A stretch of 64,000 nucleotides of DNA, from the NCBI GenBank assembly GCA_965237905.1, contig OZ250172.1, positions 2,461,805-2,525,804 on the forward strand. The letters are read 5' to 3'. Of the stretch, positions 1 to 58,275 are shown piece after piece. This stretch comes from Nitrospinaceae bacterium (GTDB taxonomy: Bacteria > Nitrospinota > Nitrospinia > Nitrospinales > Nitrospinaceae). A model generated the notes under the pieces. It saw only the letters and a program-made list of their open reading frames with translations. It was not told the origin of the DNA and made no database searches. Numbering within the stretch: position 1 is the stretch's first letter; each line of letters opens with the position of its first letter. Made by a program: the position numbers and the translations under genes.

Positions 1-1501
1 TGGGTTCGTAGGGCGTCAGGGACACGATATCCAGGAAACGAAACCGGTCCACGCGGTACCGCTTCGATTCGTAATAGTACCTTGCGGCAAAATCAAAAAA
101 TAAAAACTGCGAATCTTTTTTGTATCCGACGTCCCGTGCCAAAAGATCGTGCAGGGTGGGACGGTAGGCGATTTCCTGAAACAGCTCATTATCGTTAATG
201 CCGACTCCCAGCCGTACCCGGTCGGTACCGTGCGCCAGATCGGGACGTTCGAAGAAAGGGGTCTCCACCTTATCCTGTCGTTTGTTTCTTAGTTTGCTAC
301 GCTCCAGAAGTATGGCGTGGGGAATCCTGAGCGGCTTTTGGGGGTCAAAGTCTTTTTTACCAAAACCCTTGTATTCCAGATAATCCAGGTAAGCGTCCAA
401 CACAAGTGCTTTTTGCGGAGTGTTTAATTGTTGATAGGAGCCTTCTTTAAGAGCATCAGCACTTTTGACCAGATCATAGAGAATGTTTTTTTCCGCGTCG
501 TTCATCTGGTCGGTTTTGTGCTGCATCCGGCTCAGAATCGCGGGACGGTAAGTGATCTTGGAAACCAACCCTTCCTGTTCCATTAGAATTTTAACGGTAT
601 CGACGGGTTGGACGGAAAAGAAAAAACCGTCACTCAATTCCAGATCGGGGTTCGCCGCTTCCAGGATAGTAAGCATATGATAGGAACAATTTTCCTGAAA
701 GTAATAATAGTCGAAGTGAGTGCCTCCCAGTTCCCATACATGGAGCATGAGGGTGTCAATCTGGTCGGGAGTGAAGTTCAATTGGTATTCCCACAAATCG
801 CGGCTTTCCCAGTTACTGTACTCCTGAACCTTGAGGTAATAGGGGAATACGCTGAAGGTTCCTTTAAAATACCCGAGCAAGCCTTTGAATGCATATAAGA
901 GCATGCTGCCTGTATCCACATTTGCGGCGTAGTTGACTCCATAGTTGGATAGTTAGTGGTTGGTTTTGCCTTTACTGTCGATGCGTAGAAAGGTGTGGCC
1001 GAACATAGAGGCTGGGTTGTTCATGTAGAAGGAAGAAAAAATAAGAGTGATGCTTTGGGGTTCCAGCTGGGCCAGCCATTTTCCCATACGGGTGCATTCC
1101 GTCTTGGGCAGTTGGTCGGGATCAATCGAGAGTTCCCGTTTCAACCATTTGTAACGGGCGGGGAAATTACATTGTGGGTGTTCCTCCTCAGGTTTTAAAG
1201 AATTCGGGTCTTTGAAGAGGTTCCTGAGGGTCGCGATCAGCTCGGCTTTGGGATCGGTTTTGCCGTCAGGCGCGTTGAAAAAACTCATCCCGTCCGCTTC
1301 GCTTTCGTATCCACCCAACCAACTTCCTTTGTAGTGGAGTAAAAGGTGCCAGCGCCTTTTCTGGTCCAATTGTTTTTCCAGTGCCTGTTGAACCAGTTGC
1401 TCGGCGTAGGGATTAGTTTCGGATGGCTGGGCCCACAGAGATCCATCCAGTAAAACGAAAAGAATCAGGAGGGTACTGAGGATGCGGATGGGATAACGCA
1501 A
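1..1501 (-). pseudogene. DUF4105-family (Lnb N-terminal-like) periplasmic protein gene. The N-terminal 182 codons (953-1501, signal peptide, FGHTFLRID motif) are followed by an in-frame TAA at 953-955. The same frame stays open and conserved-looking (NYGVNYAANVDTGSMLLYAFKGLLGYFKGTF...) to the left window edge.
   Basis: My own translation of the minus strand from 952 down to 1 in the frame of ORF 953..1501 is stop-free and domain-like. The GHTFLR motif and downstream NYG..YA..G..Y block look like DUF4105 from memory. The track does not list edge-truncated ORFs. Confidence 0.5.
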
Positions 1502-1523
1502 AGTGGAAACTTCGGGAAAGGGT

Positions 1524-1570
1524 GGACAAAAAAAGGGATATCAATGCATCGCGAGAATACATTGATATCC
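1524..1570 (-). terminator. Rho-independent terminator after DUF3015-like paralog 1: stem GGATATCAATG / CATTGATATCC (1536-1546 / 1560-1570), 13-nt loop, run of A on the plus strand (T-run on the transcript)
   Basis: A perfect 11-bp inverted repeat plus a T-tract directly downstream of the stop at 1594. The same stem recurs at 3056-3090. Confidence 0.7.
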
Positions 1571-1593
1571 CTTTAAAATCAAGGCTATTTAGA

Positions 1594-2157
1594 TTAGCCG
1601 ATGACTCCCGTACAGGTTTTGGACAGAACCGCGTGTCCGGAAATCTGCTGTTCCAGAGAACCCAGCATGTCCTTCGTGGAGGTATTCTGATCCTTCACGA
1701 TCGTGCTGAAGTTTTCCTGAGCTACGCTTCCGAAATCCCCGTAGGAATCCTGGGAACACCCGTACATGCTGGCCAGGTTGTCCAGGTTTTCACCTTGACC
1801 GGCGGCCATTTCCTTGACCAGGCTGTTGTAGTTGACACTGGCGAAGGTTTCGCGCTCCTGTTGCTTGCGGGTCAGTTTGTCCTTGCCGCAATTGGAGGTA
1901 CCGAAAGTGATTGCGGTAGAGTGGCTGGATCCGAAGGGATCCACCATTGCCGCCAAAAGCTGGGCACCATCTCTTTTTGTTCCAAAAATCAAAGATCCGG
2001 GACCACAGCCGGCATCGCCATAACCTGCCGGGTGGGCGATAGCCGTGCTGGAAAAAGCGACTAAAACGAAAAGAACCGCACTTCCAAGTAGATATTTTTT
2101 CATTGAGTATCTCCTCGTGATGTTCAATGTTGTTTTTATTTTATAGTGGTAATTCAT
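1594..2157 (-). CDS. Secreted small protein, 4 conserved Cys, DUF3015-like, paralog 1 (probable start MKKYLL at 2103)
   Basis: Signal peptide. Motifs AGYGDAGCGPGS, NCG, MYGCSQDS and GHAVLSKTCTGVIG are shared with the two neighbours. The family name is from memory. Confidence 0.8.
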   Translation of the reverse strand: MNYHYKIKTTLNITRRYSMKKYLLGSAVLFVLVAFSSTAIAHPAGYGDAGCGPGSLIFGTKRDGAQLLAAMVDPFGSSHSTAITFGTSNCGKDKLTRKQQERETFASVNYNSLVKEMAAGQGENLDNLASMYGCSQDSYGDFGSVAQENFSTIVKDQNTSTKDMLGSLEQQISGHAVLSKTCTGVIG

Positions 2158-2199
2158 AAAGGTAATAATGTTCAGAGTTCATGGAATGATTTCATTCCA

Positions 2200-2721
2200 C
2201 TAGCCGATCACACCGGTACATGATTTGGACAGAACCGCATGGCCCGCCATTTCGTTCTCGATAGAAATCAGCATCTGATCGGAAGTGGTGCTTTCGTTTT
2301 GAACGATGTGTTCGAAGTTTTCCTGAACCATGGAGCTGAATTCACCATAAGATTCCTGCGAACATCCATACATGCCGGCCAGAGTACTCAGGCTCTCACC
2401 TTCGCCTACAGCCATTTCCCGGACCAGACTGGAATAATTAGTTTGAGCGAACATCTCCCGCTCTTTTTCCAATTTAACCAGGCCTTGCGGATTACAATTG
2501 AGAGAACCGACCGTGATAGCAGTCAATTGGGTATACTTGAATGTAGAATTAGTCGTAACTCCGAGCAATTGCATGGCACCCGGTGAGGTACCCGCCACCA
2601 GGGAACCCAGTCCACAACCGGATCCACCATAGCCTGCGGCAAACGCGGCACTCGAAAAGGTAATGAAACTAACAAGAACAACACCCACCATTAGAAGTTT
2701 TTTCATTGACTGTCTCCTCAT
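2200..2721 (-). CDS. Secreted small protein, DUF3015-like, paralog 2 (probable start MKKLLM at 2706)
   Basis: About 55-60% identical to paralogs 1 and 3, with the same Cys pattern. The RBS gaggaga lies upstream. Confidence 0.8.
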   Translation of the reverse strand: MRRQSMKKLLMVGVVLVSFITFSSAAFAAGYGGSGCGLGSLVAGTSPGAMQLLGVTTNSTFKYTQLTAITVGSLNCNPQGLVKLEKEREMFAQTNYSSLVREMAVGEGESLSTLAGMYGCSQESYGEFSSMVQENFEHIVQNESTTSDQMLISIENEMAGHAVLSKSCTGVIG

Positions 2722-3039
2722 GTTGTTAAGGGTTAAGGGTGAGTTAATATTCCGGATAACCGAAGTTTCCGGAAAAGAATTGAATCGAGCGATTAATTAG
2801 GAAATCATAAAACTCCTTATCTTATAAGATATTAAAGGATATTTTAAAATTACACAACCCATAAATGTAACTCTTTATCAACCTAAATGTAACATTCGGA
2901 TAAATAGTCTGGAACTGGCCTACGGACCCAAAAAAAGGGATGACCTTACAAATAAAAGGATTGAAGCATCTGCCCGGAGTTGGCGATATTTGAAATCAGA
3001 GAGGAATTACCTTTTTAAGGTAGGTTGGCTGATATATGG

Positions 3040-3100
3040 GAGGGGAAATAGAAAAGGATATCAATGGTTCGCAAAAACACATTGATATCCTTTTATTTTA
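3040..3100. terminator. Bidirectional-looking terminator: stem GGATATCAATG / CATTGATATCC (3056-3066 / 3080-3090), T-runs on both sides
   Basis: The stem is identical to the terminator at 1536-1570 but the loop differs. It follows the stop of paralog 3 at 3120. Confidence 0.65.
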
Positions 3101-3119
3101 TACAACCCAGTCCTGTCGA

Positions 3120-3668
3120 TTAACCGGCGATACTGGAACAGGATTTGGACAATACTGCGTGGCCTGACATCTCGGATTTCAGGCTGGAAAGCATTTGCTG
3201 AGAGGTGGTGGAGTCGCTTTTGACGATATCACTGAAATTCGCCTGAACCAGAGAACCGAAATCAGCTTGGGAGCCCTGAGAACAACCGTAGAGACCTGCT
3301 AAAGTGTCCAGATTTTCCCCTTCGCCCATAGCCATTTCTTTCACGAGAGTGGAATAATTGTTCTTGGCGAATTCCTCCCGCTCCTTCTCCAGCTTCACCA
3401 GGCCTACGGGGTTACAATTGGAAGTCCCGGTAGTAATACCAAAGGTCTGGGTACCAAATAACCCGTTTGTGGTGGAGGCCAGAATCTGGAAACCTTGTCC
3501 TTGATCTTTTCCGAAAGCCAGGGACCCGAGACCGCAACCGGCATCGCCATACCCGGCGGCAAAGGCCGATCCGGAAAAAGAAACTAAAGAAAGAACCAGA
3601 GCACCTGTCATTATTAGCTTTTTCATTGGAGTTCTCCTTCTGTGGTTAACTAAAGGGGTGGTTAACAA
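3120..3668 (-). CDS. Secreted small protein, DUF3015-like, paralog 3 (probable start MKKLIM at 3626, RBS aaggaga)
   Basis: Same architecture and motifs as paralogs 1 and 2. Confidence 0.8.
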   Translation of the reverse strand: MLTTPLVNHRRRTPMKKLIMTGALVLSLVSFSGSAFAAGYGDAGCGLGSLAFGKDQGQGFQILASTTNGLFGTQTFGITTGTSNCNPVGLVKLEKEREEFAKNNYSTLVKEMAMGEGENLDTLAGLYGCSQGSQADFGSLVQANFSDIVKSDSTTSQQMLSSLKSEMSGHAVLSKSCSSIAG

Positions 3669-3876
3669 TCAAAGGTGTGGCTAAATTCAGTGGCCAGGAA
3701 TTGGCCTGGATCAATGTGCAAGGTGGTCTTTTCAAAACTTATCAAATACTTGGGGGGAAATTTACCATACCAAAATGTATTACACAATGATTAATTGTAA
3801 TTCTAACGGGGGGATTTTTCTACCCTCGGTGGGGCCACTGGGGGAAAATTTGAAAACTGCGGTTTTAAGGAAAAAT

Positions 3877-6627: not shown

Positions 6628-7407
6628 ATGAAAAAATCCCTGATTTTTTTAAAATCAATAGTATTGAGCCTGCCGCTGGTGATGGTTTGGGCCGATTTTG
6701 CCTGGGCCGCCAAGGAAAAAACGGTTGCCGGCTGGACCATCATCTCCGTCATCGACAAAGGCGGACCCATGATGTACCCCATCCTGTTCAGTTCCATCCT
6801 CATGATAGGCATCGCCATCGAACGCTTCTACACCCTGCGCAGAAAAAACATCATCAACCCCGATTTTCTGGAGAAGGTGCGGTCGCATTGGAACTGGAAG
6901 GATATCCATCTTGGCCTCCAGCTGTGTAAATCCTACGACAACTCTCTGTCGCGCATTTTGAAAGCGGGATTGTTGCGCTTCGGCGGCAAGGTGGACGAAG
7001 TCGAACGCGCCATCGAAGGTGCGGGCCAGCACGAGGCGTCGCTCCTCACCTCCAATTTGCGGGTGCTGGGCGCGGTGGCGAACATCACCCCCATGCTCGG
7101 CCTGCTCGGCACCGTGTTCGGCATGATCAAGGCGTTCAACGTCATCTCGCAAAGCGGGACCGGCAACCCCGGCCTCGTCGCCAGCGGCATCTCCGAAGCA
7201 TTGATCACCACCGCCGCGGGCCTCGTCGTCGGCATCCCCGCACTGGCGCTGTATCATTATTTCCGGGGACGCATCGAGCGGTTCGTGTTCGAGATGGAGG
7301 AAGTGTCCGTGCAGTTGGTGGAAGAGTTGAACTTCGAAAGCATGCGCAACCGCCGCGCCGAAAAGGGCAAAGACGCCGCCGCCAAAACCACCGCCCGCCC
7401 AGCGTGA
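6628..7407 (+). CDS. exbB: MotA/TolQ/ExbB proton-channel family protein (start MKKSLIF at 6628; the listed ORF begins upstream at 6445)
   Basis: Three TM helices plus the conserved ExbB/TolQ C-terminal region (GLLGTVFGMIKAF). The stop codon lies inside the palindrome CCAGCGTGACGCTGG. Confidence 0.8.
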   Translation: MKKSLIFLKSIVLSLPLVMVWADFAWAAKEKTVAGWTIISVIDKGGPMMYPILFSSILMIGIAIERFYTLRRKNIINPDFLEKVRSHWNWKDIHLGLQLCKSYDNSLSRILKAGLLRFGGKVDEVERAIEGAGQHEASLLTSNLRVLGAVANITPMLGLLGTVFGMIKAFNVISQSGTGNPGLVASGISEALITTAAGLVVGIPALALYHYFRGRIERFVFEMEEVSVQLVEELNFESMRNRRAEKGKDAAAKTTARPA

Positions 7408-7424
7408 CGCTGGACTCAATTTTG

Positions 7425-7500
7425 CAGGGGCGTTATGGCGGGATTGATTCGTTACTTTCGCCAGCCGAGGTTTTAAAATTACCTGCGGCGGTTCGCCGCT
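7425..7500 (+). repeat. Copy A of the ~90-bp intergenic repeat family (core ACGGTTTTAAAATTACCTGCGG, terminal hairpin GCGGCG-GTT-CGCCGC)
   Basis: It aligns with the copies at 47436, 50075 and 58180. Confidence 0.75.
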
Positions 7501-7528
7501 TCATCTGTGGTTAATTGGATTGTAGGGT

Positions 7529-7924
7529 ATGCATTTCAGACGCGAACAGGAAGAAAACTATTCACTGGAACTGACGCCCCTGATCGACGTCGTGTTCCTG
7601 CTCCTCATCTTCTTCATGGTATCGACCGCCTTCGTCGACTTTCCACGGCGGATGGATATCACACTGCCCACCTCGAAAGCCGCCAGCGACGACGAAGTGG
7701 TCAAGAACCTCGAGATCGAGATGACCAAAGACAAAAAGATTTATGTCAAGGGACGCCGCATCAGCCTGCAACAGCTCGAGGCCAGTCTCGCCATTCTCAA
7801 GAAACCGCAGGAAGTCAAAACCATCATCCGCGCCGACCAGGACATCGCCTACGGCGACGTCGTCAAAGTCATGGGCCTCCTCCAGGCCGCCAAAGTCACC
7901 GACATCTCCGTCGCCGTCAAATAA
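7529..7924 (+). CDS. exbD: Biopolymer transport protein ExbD/TolR
   Basis: 131 aa with a single N-terminal TM (LTPLIDVVFLLLIFFM) and the ExbD fold signature. Confidence 0.85.
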   Translation: MHFRREQEENYSLELTPLIDVVFLLLIFFMVSTAFVDFPRRMDITLPTSKAASDDEVVKNLEIEMTKDKKIYVKGRRISLQQLEASLAILKKPQEVKTIIRADQDIAYGDVVKVMGLLQAAKVTDISVAVK

Positions 7925-8054
7925 CCCGGTGGACGCATCACCTGCTGGCTCATCCGTTTGCTAGAAGATAAAAAGGGAGATGCTCCTGCGGAGGGAGGAT
8001 TGTTTATTTATTCATTTAAGGATATGATCACCCAACGTTTACGGAGGGGTTACG

Positions 8055-8801
8055 GTGAATACAGGAAGACTCAAACGTTGGATCCAAATCGACTGGGACG
8101 CGATTGCCGGAATCATCGCGGCCCTCATCGCCATCGTGATGCACTACCTGCACTCCCTGGAAGTGGACGTGCTCCTCATGATCGCCCTGGTCCTGCTGGC
8201 GCTTTTGTTTATCCGTGACCTTAGAAGTGAAAGCCGGATGGAAAAGGCCGGTGAAACTCTGCAACGTATCGAAAACTGCGCCCGCGAAATCCAGAGGACC
8301 CTCCATCCCGCGGATGCCCTGCTGATAGGTCCGGCCAATTTGCGTTCGGAAACGGAGCAGTTTGTGCGGCGGGCCAGGGGCGAAATGGTTTGGTTTCATG
8401 TCTGCCCGCTGATGTTCAAAACGCAATTGTTATTCGATGCCCTGCTCAAACCCGCGATCGAAAACCGACAGGTCACCGCTCTCCGGTTTACCTTGGACGT
8501 GGGTCAAAAAGCGGTTTGGGATGCGGAAGTGATGCCCAAAATTCAGAAGTGTGCTGGTGCCCACAAGGTCCAGGCTCCCGCTTGGGTATCCATTGCCGAT
8601 CACGTTTCCTTTATTCTCTCCGACACCGATAAAGAAAAGGAAAAAGAATGCCTGTTGAGTTTTTGGGGCGAGCCGTTCATGTCTGAAAATATCGGGCAAT
8701 CGGTTCCACGTTACATCTTTCATGTTCAGCCGCATTCCGAACTGGTGATGCGATTCGTTGAAATAGAACGGTGTTCCCGCCTGGGAAATACCCAAACCTA
8801 A
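8055..8801 (+). CDS. Hypothetical membrane protein (GTG start)
   Basis: Two N-terminal TM helices, no recognisable domain. It sits where TonB might be expected but is not Pro-rich. Confidence 0.5.
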   Translation: MNTGRLKRWIQIDWDAIAGIIAALIAIVMHYLHSLEVDVLLMIALVLLALLFIRDLRSESRMEKAGETLQRIENCAREIQRTLHPADALLIGPANLRSETEQFVRRARGEMVWFHVCPLMFKTQLLFDALLKPAIENRQVTALRFTLDVGQKAVWDAEVMPKIQKCAGAHKVQAPAWVSIADHVSFILSDTDKEKEKECLLSFWGEPFMSENIGQSVPRYIFHVQPHSELVMRFVEIERCSRLGNTQT

Positions 8802-8880
8802 AGGTCGGGGTGCAGGATCTCCAAGCCGCCCAAGTCACCGACATCTCTGTTGCGGTGAAGTAAAACCTGCTCGAACCTTG

Positions 8881-9159
8881 TTATATGGTCAGAGCTTCCA
8901 GCTTCAAATTCCCTTTGGCCACTTGTTCTTTGACGGGTTTGGAGAGGTTTTTGACAGCGCATTCCACTTTGAGGGCCTGGGAGCGGTTGCCGATTTTCTG
9001 CTGGAACACGAGTGTCAGCGGGCGGCGGGGGCGCAGGTATTTCGATCCCTTCTTGCCCCCTTCCGCATGCTCGGCGAAGCGTCGTTCGACGTCCGTCGCA
9101 ATCCCGGTGTACAGACTGCCGCTCTTCACGCGAATCATATAAAGATGCCATTCGGTCAT
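8881..9159 (-). CDS. GIY-YIG nuclease family protein (UPF0213-like), start MTEWHLYMIR
   Basis: WHLYMIR...GSLYTGIATDVERRFAEH...GAK/SKYLR is a GIY-YIG signature. The RBS ggaagga lies upstream of the internal ATG. Confidence 0.75.
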   Translation of the reverse strand: MTEWHLYMIRVKSGSLYTGIATDVERRFAEHAEGGKKGSKYLRPRRPLTLVFQQKIGNRSQALKVECAVKNLSKPVKEQVAKGNLKLEALTI

Positions 9160-9424
9160 GCGTTGTCCTTCCGGCGAAGCGCCGGTGCTAATTTTTCCCC
9201 TCCTTGCCAAGGAGGGGATACAGGGGAGGTTATGATAACTCCACCCCTCACCTTAATCCATCACCCTGTGGGTGCTTCCCATGAGGGGAGAGGAGATTTT
9301 TGATTTTGCTCCCCCTTGTCGAAGGGTGGCAGGGTGTCGCGCTTTCCTTCGGCAAGCTCAGGACAGGCTAATCGGCTCAGCATGACACCCTATTATGCTT
9401 TCTCAATGGAAATCCGGGATAAAT

Positions 9425-9778
9425 TTATTCGCCGAGGGACTGATGCAGATTGGAGCCGCGGGTGAGAATCCATTCGTTGAGGCGGATCACTTCATCCGGT
9501 TTCAGGAATTGTAACACGTCCTGCGGGGTGGGGTGGTCTTCGTCGTTGATCATGGTGCAGTAGTTGCGCTCGACGAACGCGGCGACGTGCTGTTTGTACT
9601 GGGGAAAGTTCGGGTACAGCTCGCAGAAGATTTCCGCCTGGTACTCCTGGCGGGTATTGTTAGGATCGTAGTGCCGCAGTTTCGGCGTCACTTTCGTCCC
9701 GAATGCCGCTTTGATCAATTCGCCCATGACATAAAACTCCGGAACACGAAGCATGGAATAGGGAACACGGAAAATCAA
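9425..9778 (-). CDS. Hypothetical protein (117 aa)
   Basis: Its RBS AAGGAGGGG is supplied by the palindromic repeat CCCCTCCTTGTTGAGGAGGGG immediately upstream. Confidence 0.5.
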   Translation of the reverse strand: MIFRVPYSMLRVPEFYVMGELIKAAFGTKVTPKLRHYDPNNTRQEYQAEIFCELYPNFPQYKQHVAAFVERNYCTMINDEDHPTPQDVLQFLKPDEVIRLNEWILTRGSNLHQSLGE

Positions 9779-10060
9779 AGTCTCCCCTCCTTGTTGAGGA
9801 GGGGCTGGGGGTGGTGCATAAATTCTTACTTTAACCCATTTATTTTATCAATGTCACCGCAGAGGACAAGAAAATTGTGCCGTTCTGGAGGGAACGCGAA
9901 GCGGGCGAAGGGTCCTGATCTGTCAAGTGCGTGTAAAATAAGAGGTCTTCGGCACCCTGCCGGTACATATTTTACGGGGAAGCGGACCATTTCGCGTTGA
10001 GACGCCACAATTCGGTAGGGAATTTCCATTACCCGGGATATCATGCGGTCTTTATTTTGA

Positions 10061-10190
10061 ACCACCGATGAAGCGGCGAGCCGCCGCTGGCAATTTGGGT
10101 CCAGCGTCACGCTGATCCCCCTCCTTACGAAGGAGGGGTTAGGGGTGGTTGATATCAACCCCTCCCCTTGAAAAGGGGAGGAGTATTTAG
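10061..10190. repeat. Cluster of palindromic repeats: GCGGCGAGCCGCCGC hairpin, GGGTCCAGCGTCACGCTG, CCCCTCCTTACGAAGGAGGGG, GGGGTGGTTGATATCAACCCC, CCCCTTGAAAAGGGGAGG
   Basis: Units of the same families recur at 7399, 9197, 9785, 12505, 23925, 28586, 30345, 41055, 48530, 50061, 50258 and 58168. Confidence 0.8.
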
Positions 10191-10233
10191 TTTTTATCCG
10201 TGTCCATCTGTGTTCATCTGTGGTTAATTTGAT

Positions 10234-11562
10234 TTGTATATGAAGAGAAATACGAAAACTTACCGGAAATACGCCGAGTCGTTGCTGGAGCTCATCGACG
10301 CCAGTCCCACGCCGTTTCACGCGACAAGCGAACTGGCCGCTCTCCTGAAAGCTGAAGGCTTTGCCGAGTTGCAGGAGGCGGACGCCTGGAGTCTGAAAAA
10401 GGGCGGGCGCTATTATGTGACGCGCAACGATTCGTCCCTGGTGGCGTTTGTGATGGGATCGAAGCCGGCGGAGTCGGCCGGATTCAAAATGATCGGCGCG
10501 CACACCGACAGCCCCAATCTGCGCCTCAAACCCAACCCGGCTTACGAAAAATCCGGCTATGTGCAGTTGGGTGTCGAAGTGTACGGCGGTGTGTTGTTGA
10601 CAACGTGGACCGATCGCGACCTGTCCCTCGCCGGGCGGGTGGTTTTGAAATCGAAGCCGGGCCAGCCGGTGTCGCGTCTCCTTAAAATTAACCGACCGTT
10701 GCTTCGCATTCCCCAGTTGGCCATTCATTTCAACCGCGAAGTCAACGACAAGGGACTCAAACTCAACAAGCAGACCCATCTGCCGCCGATTCTACAAATG
10801 GCGGAACAGGATCTTTCTTCCGAGAAAGTGTTGCAGGAGCTGGTGGCGCGCGAGTTGCCATGCCAGGCGGAGGAGATCGTCAGCCTCGATCTGGCATTGT
10901 ACGACGTGCAGGCCTCGACCTTTGCCGGTCCGAATGATGAGTTTGTGTTCGCCCCGCGCCTCGATAACCTGGCGTCCTGCCACGCGGCGACGGTGGCGTT
11001 ACTGGAGGCATCGAAGCAGGATGACGCCACCCGCGTGCTGGCGTTTTACGATCATGAAGAAGTCGGGAGCGAAACCGCGCAGGGCGGCGAGTCGCCGTTT
11101 TTGAAAGATGCATTGGAGCGGATGGTGATGGACTCCGGCAATCCGCGCGAGGCTCTCATGCGGGCGATTGCCCAATCGATTTTCATTTCCGCCGACATGG
11201 CGCACGCCGTGCACCCCAACTATGCCGATAAGCACGAGGATCGGCACCTGCCGCTCATCAACGCGGGGCCGGTGATCAAAACCAACGCCGGGCAGAGGTA
11301 TGCCACCGAGGGCGTATCGAGCGCGCATTTCGAATTGATGAGCCAGCGCGCCGGGGTGAACGTGCAGAAGTTCGTGGTACGGTCCGACATGGGATGCGGG
11401 ACCACGATCGGCCCTCTCACCGCCGCCAACCTCGGCATCCGCACCGTCGACGTGGGCAATCCCATGCTCTCCATGCACTCGATCCGCGAGATGGCCGGGT
11501 CGCAGGACCACGGCGACATGATTCAGGTCTTCAAGGAATATTTTAATGCGGAGAAGGCTTAG
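10234..11562 (+). CDS. M18 family aminopeptidase (aspartyl aminopeptidase-like); probable ATG at 10240
   Basis: GAHTDSPNLRLKP and the downstream metal-binding blocks are typical of peptidase M18. Confidence 0.85.
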   Translation: MYMKRNTKTYRKYAESLLELIDASPTPFHATSELAALLKAEGFAELQEADAWSLKKGGRYYVTRNDSSLVAFVMGSKPAESAGFKMIGAHTDSPNLRLKPNPAYEKSGYVQLGVEVYGGVLLTTWTDRDLSLAGRVVLKSKPGQPVSRLLKINRPLLRIPQLAIHFNREVNDKGLKLNKQTHLPPILQMAEQDLSSEKVLQELVARELPCQAEEIVSLDLALYDVQASTFAGPNDEFVFAPRLDNLASCHAATVALLEASKQDDATRVLAFYDHEEVGSETAQGGESPFLKDALERMVMDSGNPREALMRAIAQSIFISADMAHAVHPNYADKHEDRHLPLINAGPVIKTNAGQRYATEGVSSAHFELMSQRAGVNVQKFVVRSDMGCGTTIGPLTAANLGIRTVDVGNPMLSMHSIREMAGSQDHGDMIQVFKEYFNAEKA

Positions 11563-23918: not shown

Positions 23919-24040
23919 ACGTTCCCCTCCTTTTTAAGGAGGGGCCGGGGGTGGTTTTCCTTCATCTGTTTCCTTATTTGCCCCAAGTTTTGCACCCGCC
24001 GATCTGCTACAATACGACTCGTTTTCGATCATAATATAAA

Positions 24041-47023: not shown

Positions 47024-47446
47024 ATGGGTTATAAAAATCCGATTCCGGCGGTCGATCTCATTATTGAAATTGAGGGTAAAGGTCTGGTGCTGATTGAGCG
47101 GCTCAACCCGCCTCCGGGTTGGGCGTTGCCGGGCGGATTCGTGGAGGTTGGCGAATCCCTGGAGCAGGCGGCTGTCCGCGAAGCCAAAGAGGAGACCTGT
47201 CTGGATGTGGAACTGCTGGGGCAGTTTCATACCTATTCCGACCCCAATCGGGACCCCCGCATGCATTGCATTTCAACCGTTTTTGTAGCCAGGGCGACAG
47301 GAACGCCGAAGGCGGAGGATGATGCCAAATCCGTCGCCCTGTATCCCAAAGACCAGCTTCCGGATATCCTGGCATTTGACCACCGGAAAATTCTGGAGGA
47401 CTATCTGAACTCCCCCTGGCTCCTGCCCGGAGGGGGAAAGGGCTGA
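47024..47446 (+). CDS. NUDIX hydrolase
   Basis: Nudix box [24 protein letters not shown]. The last 8 codons and the stop lie inside the repeat ...CCTGCCCGGAGGGGGAAAGGGCTGACCGG. Confidence 0.85.
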
Positions 47447-47520
47447 CCGGAAACGGCCAGAGAGAATCCTTGGAGCGCAATTTACGGTTTTAAAATTACC
47501 CGTGGCGGTTCGCTACCCAG
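47436..47520 (+). repeat. Copy B of the ~90-bp repeat family (GGCTGACCGGAAACGGC ... ACGGTTTTAAAATTACCCGTGGCGGTTCGCTAC)
   Basis: It aligns with copies A, C and D. Its terminal hairpin GTGGCG/CGCTAC has one mismatch. Confidence 0.75.
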
Positions 47521-49987: not shown

Positions 49988-50060
49988 AAATCCTCTTGGA
50001 ATTATTATCTATAAGTATTGGATTGTATAAACAGGGGTAGGGGATTACAACCGAAATCCG

Positions 50061-50160
50061 CCTCCTCCCCGGAGGGGGAATTGGCTGACCGGTAACGGCA
50101 ACCGTGAATTACTGAGCGCAACTCACGGTTTTAAAATTACCTGCGGAGGTACTCCGCCGT
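50061..50160 (+). repeat. Copy C of the ~90-bp repeat family, preceded by the palindrome CCTCCTCCCCGGAGGGGGAA (GGCTGACCGGTAACGGCAACCGTGAATTACTGAGCGCAACTCACGGTTTTAAAATTACCTGCGGAGGTACTCCGCC)
   Basis: Internal hairpins AACCGTGA/TCACGGTT and GCGGAG/CTCCGC. Confidence 0.8.
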
Positions 50161-50312
50161 CAACCAGGGGTTTTCACAAAAAACCCTCTTCCAAATAGGA
50201 AGCACCCGCAGGGTGACGGGCTGGGTGAGGGGTGGTGTCATCTTAATCTTCCCTGTATCCCCTCCTCGATAAGGAGGGGACCAGGGAGTATCCTCTGGGT
50301 GAGGATAAAAGC

Positions 50313-58167: not shown

Positions 58168-58275
58168 CCGCCCTCTAGCGAGGGAGGCAAATGGCTGACG
58201 GTTAACGGCAAGCGTTGACTATAGGGTGCAGTTCAAGGGTTTTAAAGTTACCAGCGGAGGCACTCCGCTTTTTTC
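58168..58275 (+). repeat. Copy D of the ~90-bp repeat family, preceded by the palindrome CCCTCTAGCGAGGGAGG; its terminal hairpin AGCGGAG-gca-CTCCGCT plus T6 forms a plus-strand terminator
   Basis: GGCTGACGGTTAACGGCAAGCG ... GGGTTTTAAAGTTACCAGCGGAGGCACTCCGCTTTTTT. Confidence 0.8.

Follow-up and report, generated by a model that had tools for sequence, protein, structure and literature searches.

A 64-kb stretch of a Nitrospinaceae genome (contig OZ250172.1; hereafter the window, with coordinates counted from its first letter) contains exbD (7529-7924, plus strand; ExbD, PF02472) and a gene for an M18 aspartyl aminopeptidase (10240-11562, plus strand; PF02127), each lying immediately 3' of a copy of the same short motif. 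An earlier prediction made from the sequence (the original prediction) had described a conserved 23-nt motif at two start codons lacking a Shine-Dalgarno (SD) sequence, and had proposed that it serves as a translation-initiation or leader element, or as an outward-facing promoter. We found that this motif forms the edge of an inverted-repeat element which is dispersed and polymorphic.

Exact matches of the 20-mer CATCTGTGGTTAATTKGATT occur twice in the window, both on the plus strand (7502-7521 and 10215-10234). No third match was found in the window at up to three mismatches, and shuffled sequence gives 0.01 matches. Copy 1 reads CATCTGTGGTTAATTGGATTGTA and is followed by GGGT and the exbD ATG (7529), a gap of 4 nt. 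Copy 2 reads CATCTGTGGTTAATTTGATTTGTA and is followed by a single T and the aminopeptidase ATG (10240), a gap of 1 nt. None of the sequences GGAG, GAGG and AGGA occurs within 20 nt 5' of either ATG, nor within the motif and its tails in the window. The near-abutment to both start codons and the lack of an SD sequence at both genes were thus confirmed, as was the position of the motif at the end of a repeat cluster: phased units precede copy 2, and a repeat with a hairpin precedes copy 1. Two details required correction. Only the part ending ...ATCTGTGGTTAATT belongs to a family consensus; the GATT(T)GTA that follows is G/T-rich, of local origin and variable among relatives. Both plus-strand copies are real, but a third, inverted and degenerate copy (GAACCACCGATGAAG) is present in the window at 10059-10073.

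The motif is the end of a phased repeat arm found in many phyla

The repeat to which the motif belongs consists of arms of two to four phased 10-nt units, each with a 7-nt core ATC(T/C)GTG and a free 3-nt linker, ending in ATCTGTGGTTAATT. The consensus of 73 arms, ATCTGTG-Ttt-ATCTGTG-TTC-ATCTGTGGTTAATT, contains three cores at 10-nt spacing, and conservation drops abruptly after AATT. Arms are sparse in the window, with only three per 64 kb.

A scan of one genome per species for the 17-mer TTCATCTGTGGTTAATT returned at least 119 DNA stretches; by our own estimate, about 70 matches are expected by chance over the whole collection. The matches listed number 130 in total (scan loci, locus L002 and the window). 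As 76-77 of these are preceded in phase by another ATCYGYG core, we regard them as real arms and not as chance matches. According to the record titles, the arm occurs nearly identically in roughly 15 bacterial phyla among the matches listed, including Abditibacteriota, Acidobacteriota, Cyanobacteriota, Planctomycetota, Verrucomicrobiota, Chloroflexota, Bacteroidota, Nitrospinota, Omnitrophota and several others. Carriers include Nostoc and Pedobacter isolates and one complete planctomycete chromosome. The one clear archaeal arm listed lies on a contig of a metagenome-assembled genome (MAG) and could be a binning error. One Abditibacteriia MAG contains at least 18 exact copies of the 17-mer, spread over 14 contig pieces.

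Inverted pairs have the form AATTAACCACAGATGAA...TTCATCTGTGGTTAATT: among the matches listed, 33 arms have a partner 64-249 nt away. The cores enclosed by paired arms are unrelated between phyla, and arms occur solo as often as paired. Neither the linker triplets nor the C/T core variants are complementary between partner arms, which indicates that the constraint acts on the phased 7-mers and not on a hairpin. In Nostocales (e.g. L016, L042, L062, L098, L115, L089 and L091), the 17-mer is embedded in a larger palindrome that is itself bounded by inverted repeats (TATAGCGRTTCCC...), indicating that the module is re-used in lineage-specific repeats.

Searches for a known or autonomous relative gave little. 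Rfam yielded only two tRNAs at gathering score, and permissive scans gave sub-threshold matches to generic long hairpins. A literature search with 11-13-mers of the arm on both strands retrieved only unrelated primer matches, and no description of the arm was found in the literature on Nitrospina repeats and cyanobacterial small repeats. The cross-phylum arm appears to be undescribed. The phage collection gave no match, and three plasmid matches (Anabaena, Nostoc, Thiodictyon) are unannotated. The arm-bearing loci, about 0.9 Mb in all, contained no two arms at a distance of 0.6-6 kb that enclose a transposase-like open reading frame (ORF); the single pair in this size range, 4.9 kb apart, is coincidental. 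When 24 neighbour ORFs on the inner side and 53 on the outer side were scanned against Pfam, neither a transposase nor an enriched family came up; the neighbours belong to housekeeping families unrelated to one another, among them MurJ, SHMT, glutamine synthetase and MnmE.

The strict 10-nt phasing of the cores with free linkers raises the question of a binding array for a sequence-specific protein that touches the 7-bp cores on one helix face, either a putative transposase/recombinase or a conserved host factor. Through this interaction the repeats would persist and would exert architectural or regulatory effects. The lack of complementarity between the arms of a pair, the near-identity of the arms listed from roughly 15 phyla and a core that does not vary between old orthologous sites are all consistent with such an array. 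However, no candidate protein is linked to the arms in the arm-bearing loci or among the neighbour ORFs, the arms have no association with a class of genes, and the identity of the protein is speculative. We consider this explanation unlikely on the whole; it is compatible with the arms being the ends of a dispersed repeat.

Several familiar signals were also considered for the arm. A DnaA box was rejected because TTAACCACA and TTATCCACA disagree at the conserved T4. The sequence also led us to dismiss XerCD/dif arms, integron attC core sites, sigma-54 promoters, Bacteroidetes -7 promoters, cyanobacterial Pho boxes and Rho rut sites. A reverse-strand mini-ORF was discarded, as the 10-nt period does not hold the reading frame.

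The inserts are polymorphic among close relatives

We compared the window with the syntenic loci L001, L002, L138, L139, L140 and L111 and with that of Nitrospina gracilis (L141); L111 was compared at the aminopeptidase site only. Protein matches assign the window to the Nitrospinota/Nitrospinaceae. The window aminopeptidase is 92% identical to its best orthologues, 70% to that of N. watsonii and 67% to that of N. gracilis. Exact-protein look-ups returned no record for the window ExbD, the window aminopeptidase or the N. watsonii orthologue.

The motif is found 5' of exbD in four of seven genomes (the window, L139, L002 and L140) and 5' of the aminopeptidase gene in four of eight (the window, L139, L138 and L111), the window being counted in both. 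Of the original prediction, the repeat origin of the motif holds; at both genes it makes up the end of the leader, just before the ATG. At the exbD sites without the motif, L001 has another repeat (42-nt spacer), L138 has no insert (7-nt spacer) and N. gracilis has none either (3-nt spacer). At the aminopeptidase site, L002 and L140 contain another repeat, and L001 and N. gracilis have no insert; the leader in L001 is 35 nt long, A/T-rich and SD-less. The interiors of the inserts vary from genome to genome and the tails diverge. The inserts at both sites have therefore been gained, lost and remodelled among close relatives.

Turnover is also visible within one locus. A metagenome scan with the sub-family pattern TATTTAGTTTTTATCNGTGT gave 14 loci, and among these a single Nitrospinaceae-like one provided information. 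Two alleles of one metagenomic locus, L131 (1045) as opposed to L122 (5645) and L129 (3948), differ by exactly one 10-nt unit. The arm thus behaves as a short tandem repeat prone to slippage.

The aminopeptidase leader contains a composite element downstream of a promoter-like block

Copy 2 is preceded by the phased 10-nt units TTTATCCGTG / TCCATCTGTG / TTCATCTGTG-GTTAATT. The whole right arm, TATTTAGTTTTTATCCGTG TCCATCTGTG TTCATCTGTGGTTAATT, extends over 10184-10229 on the plus strand, with ATCYGTG cores at 10196, 10206 and 10216, and is also present in L002, L139, L122 and L129. Between its end and the ATG lies the A/T-rich tail TGATTTGTAT (10230-10239, plus strand). The left, inverted arm (10059-10114, minus strand) begins with GAACCACCGATGAAG, the reverse complement of the motif core, and continues with hairpin modules. 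The region between the arms (10116-10184, plus strand) is formed by the G/C-rich hairpins CCCCCTCCTTACGAAGGAGGGG, GGGGTGGTTGATATCAACCCC and CCTCCCCTTGAAAAGGGGAGG, the last of which is terminator-like with a T-rich run on its 3' side. Since the inverted core copy lies about 140 nt upstream of the phased units, we regard 10059-10229 as an inverted-repeat element of about 170 nt, with terminal inverted repeats at 10059-10073 and 10213-10229. In the predicted RNA fold of minimum free energy (dG -78 kcal/mol, z = -3.0), the two arms pair (10059-10073 with 10212-10226) and enclose the internal hairpins, and the tail (10-13 nt) and the ATG are outside the arm-arm stem.

Upstream of the insert, a six-genome alignment revealed a promoter-like block, TAGGGA-17 nt-TATCAT (10016-10044, plus strand). 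It reads TTGGGA-17-TAT(C/G)AT in relatives and is kept across the six genomes; the window version, with TAGGGA, scores under the threshold of our promoter scan. From its sequence and conservation, the block is probably the aminopeptidase promoter. Because it is conserved upstream of the insertion point, the insert probably lies within the 5' untranslated region. The block belongs to a larger non-coding region 5' of the aminopeptidase gene of about 120 nt (about 9925-10047), likewise conserved in six genomes, which contains CCAAATCCGTGTAAAATAAGAGCTCTTCGGC and CACAATTCGGTTGGGAATTTCC...GGGATATCAT. This region may comprise a promoter together with regulator sites, or a small RNA.

These data bear on the proposal that the repeat carries an outward promoter and possibly gives rise to a near-leaderless mRNA, as Correia elements do in Neisseria (PMC3184786). 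TAATTT (10225-10230), about 10 nt before the ATG, has T1, A2 and T6 of a -10 hexamer, and the terminator-like hairpin at 10161-10181 lies just upstream. However, a scan for sigma-70-like promoters (-35 and -10 hexamers at 16-18-nt spacing) found no plus-strand site in 7300-10400, and by inspection there is no acceptable -35 sequence 16-18 nt upstream of TAATTT. Copy 1 reads TAATTG, without the T at position 6. Upstream of the insert there is the promoter-like block kept in relatives, and exbD, which starts 3-7 nt behind exbB in genomes without an insert, is for this reason probably co-transcribed with exbB. Finally, the arms are not oriented preferentially towards starts (29 versus 36 towards stops among the matches listed). 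The outward-promoter proposal of the original prediction is thus very improbable, and we do not retain it.

The window also contains a third family of small repeats, with five copies (9197-9217, 9784-9804, 10118-10138, 23924-23944 and 50259-50279). Each is a G/C-rich hairpin with perfect pairing, CCCCTCCTT-NNN-AAGGAGGGG, and in many cases GGGGTGGT comes directly after it.

In the exbB-exbD spacer a single terminal unit is fused to a different repeat

Copy 1 comprises just one unit, the terminal one of the arm, TTCATCTGTGGTTAATT (7500-7516, plus strand); the motif of the original prediction covers 7502-7524. The G/T-rich tail GGATTGTAGGGT (7517-7528, plus strand) connects the arm end with the exbD ATG. 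It is lineage-specific and outside the family consensus, the orthologous tails being AGGGTTGTAAGGT in L139, TTGGGGTTTGGATT in L002 and CTGGTTTTAGGTT in L140. On its 5' side, copy 1 is fused to a module of a second repeat family (7469-7499, plus strand), composed of GGTTTTAAAATTACC and the hairpin GCGGCGGTTCGCCGC (7485-7499). Further window copies of this repeat with its hairpin are located at 47486, 50127 and 58238. The junction between hairpin and motif is also found in L111, 5' of the aminopeptidase gene, and in the inverted arm at 10059-10114 of the window. As it recurs in these places, the junction represents a dispersed composite and not a local accident. A terminator-like hairpin, CCAGCGTGACGCTGG (7399-7413, plus strand), holds the exbB stop codon (TGA, 7405-7407) and is part of the composite repeat.

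The second repeat family is about 100 nt long and was found in the window at 7456-7499, 47418-47515, 50060-50160 and 58172-58262, as well as in L002 (9970-10000) and L140 (3920-3950). Its order is a hairpin CTCC(T)GCCCGGAGGGGGA, then GGCTGACCGGWAACGGC, then GGTTTTAAAATTACC, which includes the -10-like hexamer TAAAAT, and then a hairpin often containing GGAGG. In L002 this repeat adjoins the aminopeptidase ATG, with GGAGG 8 nt 5' of it. If a ribosome-binding site is delivered by a repeat, the second family is a likelier candidate for it than the motif studied here.

The last 45 nt of exbD (7880-7924) are duplicated at 8819-8863 with 84% identity, and the two copies flank an ORF (8055-8801) of 248 amino acids without a Pfam match. 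This ORF is present in L140, whereas L001, L002, L138, L139 and N. gracilis do not have it. Its appearance is that of a gene inserted together with an exbD 3' end of its own. Elsewhere in the window (about 1500-3700), three tandem paralogous genes, which are DUF3015 genes in the syntenic loci, are separated by repeated terminator-like palindromes (1524-1575 and 3044-3095).

Arms adjoin gene starts and gene ends alike

To describe the position of arms relative to genes, we used ORF-based estimates for the starts, while stop positions are exact. Among 76 arms from the matches listed, 65 have a callable outer gene; 29 of these face a start and 36 face a stop. A candidate start within 25 nt of the arm was found in only 10 of the listed cases. 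By comparison, 10 of the 36 converging genes stop inside the reverse complement of the arm, at offsets -6, -16 and -26 (corresponding to AAT-TAA, AGA-TGA and AGA-TAA), and another dozen of the listed converging genes end within 27 nt of the arm. The same holds for other Nitrospinaceae loci (L040, L096, L109 and L119), where the arm abuts or overlaps the stop codons of genes on the opposite strand. As both starts and stops are adjoined, the arm hugs both kinds of gene boundary without preference for starts. Most of the arms listed thus lie away from start codons, an outcome that the original prediction had itself named as one that would refute it.

The reverse complement of the arm contains a stop in all three frames within 26 nt (loci L003-L121), and so the arm can replace the native stop codon and C-terminus of a gene.

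Start codons without a Shine-Dalgarno sequence are common in the lineage

We defined a strong SD core as GGAG or GAGG at 4-21 nt from the start of a called gene. By this definition, 2 of 23 called genes in L001, 8 of 21 in L002 and 6 of 21 in N. gracilis have one. In the window, 19 of 50 long ORFs lack a strong SD core before any candidate start. The orthologues without the motif in L001 and N. gracilis are equally SD-less. These sequence data suggest that initiation in the Nitrospinaceae is mostly SD-independent.

Against this background we weighed a local translation-initiation or leader role of the repeat-borne motif at the exbD and aminopeptidase ATGs. Such a role would be in keeping with the distance of 5-14 nt between arm end and ATG in eight orthologous copies at two genes, and with a core that is invariant although the remainder of each insert is reshuffled. 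In L138 and N. gracilis, exbB and exbD are coupled at 3-7 nt; an insert in the spacer disrupts this coupling, and exbD then needs its own initiation site. The predicted fold leaves the tail and the ATG outside the arm-arm stem, and the REP2 repeat provides a precedent (PMC3184786). On the other hand, the L001 and N. gracilis orthologues have neither motif nor SD sequence, and SD-less starts are the norm of the lineage. Only two genes are arranged in this way, other Nitrospinaceae copies abutting stop codons, and across phyla 36 of 65 arms among the matches listed face gene ends. As read from the sequence, the motif also lacks complementarity to the anti-SD. We therefore consider an initiation role improbable, and this part of the original prediction is not upheld.

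The motif as boundary of a small dispersed repeat

The explanation that we favour, with a probability of roughly 0.7, is that the motif constitutes the outer terminus of a small, non-coding dispersed repeat that resembles MITEs (miniature inverted-repeat transposable elements), and would thus mark a repeat boundary and not an initiation or promoter signal. Arms are found singly or in inverted pairs that enclose a variable core. They would either integrate into short A/T-rich stretches bordering genes or be retained only there. In the window, the aminopeptidase leader contains one composite element (10059-10229), 3' of the promoter-like block, and the exbB-exbD spacer contains one terminal unit joined to another repeat. 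The element at copy 2 is predicted to fold on itself in the transcript, with the 10-13-nt tail and the ATG remaining outside the stem. Both genes would be translated independently of an SD sequence, like most genes of the lineage.

Features typical of MITEs are the terminal inverted repeats, the small non-coding size (64-249 nt for pairs, about 170 nt for the window element), the many dispersed copies per genome (at least 18 in the Abditibacteriia MAG) and the presence or absence at orthologous sites. Membership in this class is not established, because no target duplication could be defined and the arm-bearing loci yielded no transposase.

Some observations weigh against this explanation. Mobility is unproven, as there is no definable target-site duplication and no transposase or autonomous copy was found in the arm-bearing loci. 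The 'empty' spacers of L001 and L138 are not alignable and no clean empty/filled pair was seen; moreover, the arm ends are palindromic (AATT/TTAA), which makes a duplication of TA, TTAA or AATT indistinguishable from the inverted repeat. The 13-nt core ATCTGTGGTTAAT is invariant in all eight orthologous copies, while the host aminopeptidases are 81-92% identical to that of the window. Such uniformity would not be expected of purely neutral debris, unless turnover or gene conversion refreshes the core. The close similarity of arms between phyla likewise exceeds what neutral debris would lead one to expect. The distance from arm end to ATG likewise stays at 5-14 nt at both sites. In addition, if the terminator-like hairpin in the element (10161-10181) were efficient, a promoter would be needed downstream of it. 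Candidate causes of the invariant core and the fixed distance are turnover or gene conversion, a binding protein, and a local initiation role.

On this reading, the two SD-less starts that share the motif reveal no new initiation signal, being the edges of repeat insertions in an SD-poor lineage. The repeats remodel 5' leaders and operon spacers, expanding the exbB-exbD junction from 3-7 nt to 100-300 nt, and through its reverse complement the arm provides nearby genes with stop codons. These effects matter when genes and operons are annotated in Nitrospinaceae or in other phyla rich in repeats. Taken as a start-codon signal, the motif is nothing unusual; the repeat family offers a lead of modest interest. 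An arm common to cyanobacteria, planctomycetes, acidobacteria, Bacteroidota, Nitrospinota and others would be unusual and would point to an unrecognised mobilising or binding protein.

Comparison with known repeat families

The Correia elements of Neisseria (CREE/NEMIS), the classic bacterial MITEs, resemble the repeat described here in being small (about 100-160 bp) and non-coding with terminal inverted repeats (PMC3184786). They are intergenic, are often located beside genes and co-transcribed with them, and vary in presence between strains (PMC3184786), as our repeat does between relatives. However, Correia elements are confined to one genus, generate a TA duplication and have measured outward promoters, and neither a duplication nor a promoter could be demonstrated for the arm. 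Conversely, phased 10-nt sub-repeats, arms that are solo as often as paired and a cross-phylum distribution set the present family apart from them. The known case nearest to the original prediction is that of Neisseria REP2 and the Borrelia IR, repeats directly 5' of ORFs which deliver promoter, ribosome-binding site and ATG (PMC3184786). REP2 contains the ribosome-binding site and ATG and is consistently 5' of genes, whereas our motif has no match to a ribosome-binding site or promoter and mostly lies elsewhere.

BOX elements are modular intergenic repeats with a tandem sub-unit of variable copy number. The pneumococcal BOX, which is among the repeats listed in PMC3184786 and PMC3049150, is similar to the arm in these respects, and in the present family modules are also swapped. 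The differences are that BOX units measure 45-59 nt and are species-specific, whereas our units are 10 nt long and the terminal module is conserved across phyla.

REP/BIME repeats and the RAYT-mobilised REPINs share with the arms that they are abundant, extragenic and often at gene ends, and that inverted doublets occur. REPs are G/C-rich stem-loops of 20-40 nt tagged GTAG or CGTC (PMC3733652). The arm consensus, by contrast, has neither such a tag nor a palindrome, is A/T-richer and contains direct sub-repeats.

In a census of 1.4 million bacterial MITEs, 97.4% were genus-specific and no bacterial cluster extended across phyla (PMC11602168); as whole elements were clustered there at 95% identity, this is not strictly comparable with our comparison of arms. 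We tentatively consider it possible that (ATCYGTG-N3) x2-4 + ATCTGTGGTTAATT is a recognition module for a putative broad-host-range transposase/recombinase family or a conserved host factor. Such a module would explain why an arm of about 30 nt is nearly unchanged in roughly 15 phyla among the matches listed and invariant at old sites, and the family would then be the first MITE-like repeat family with ends conserved across phyla.

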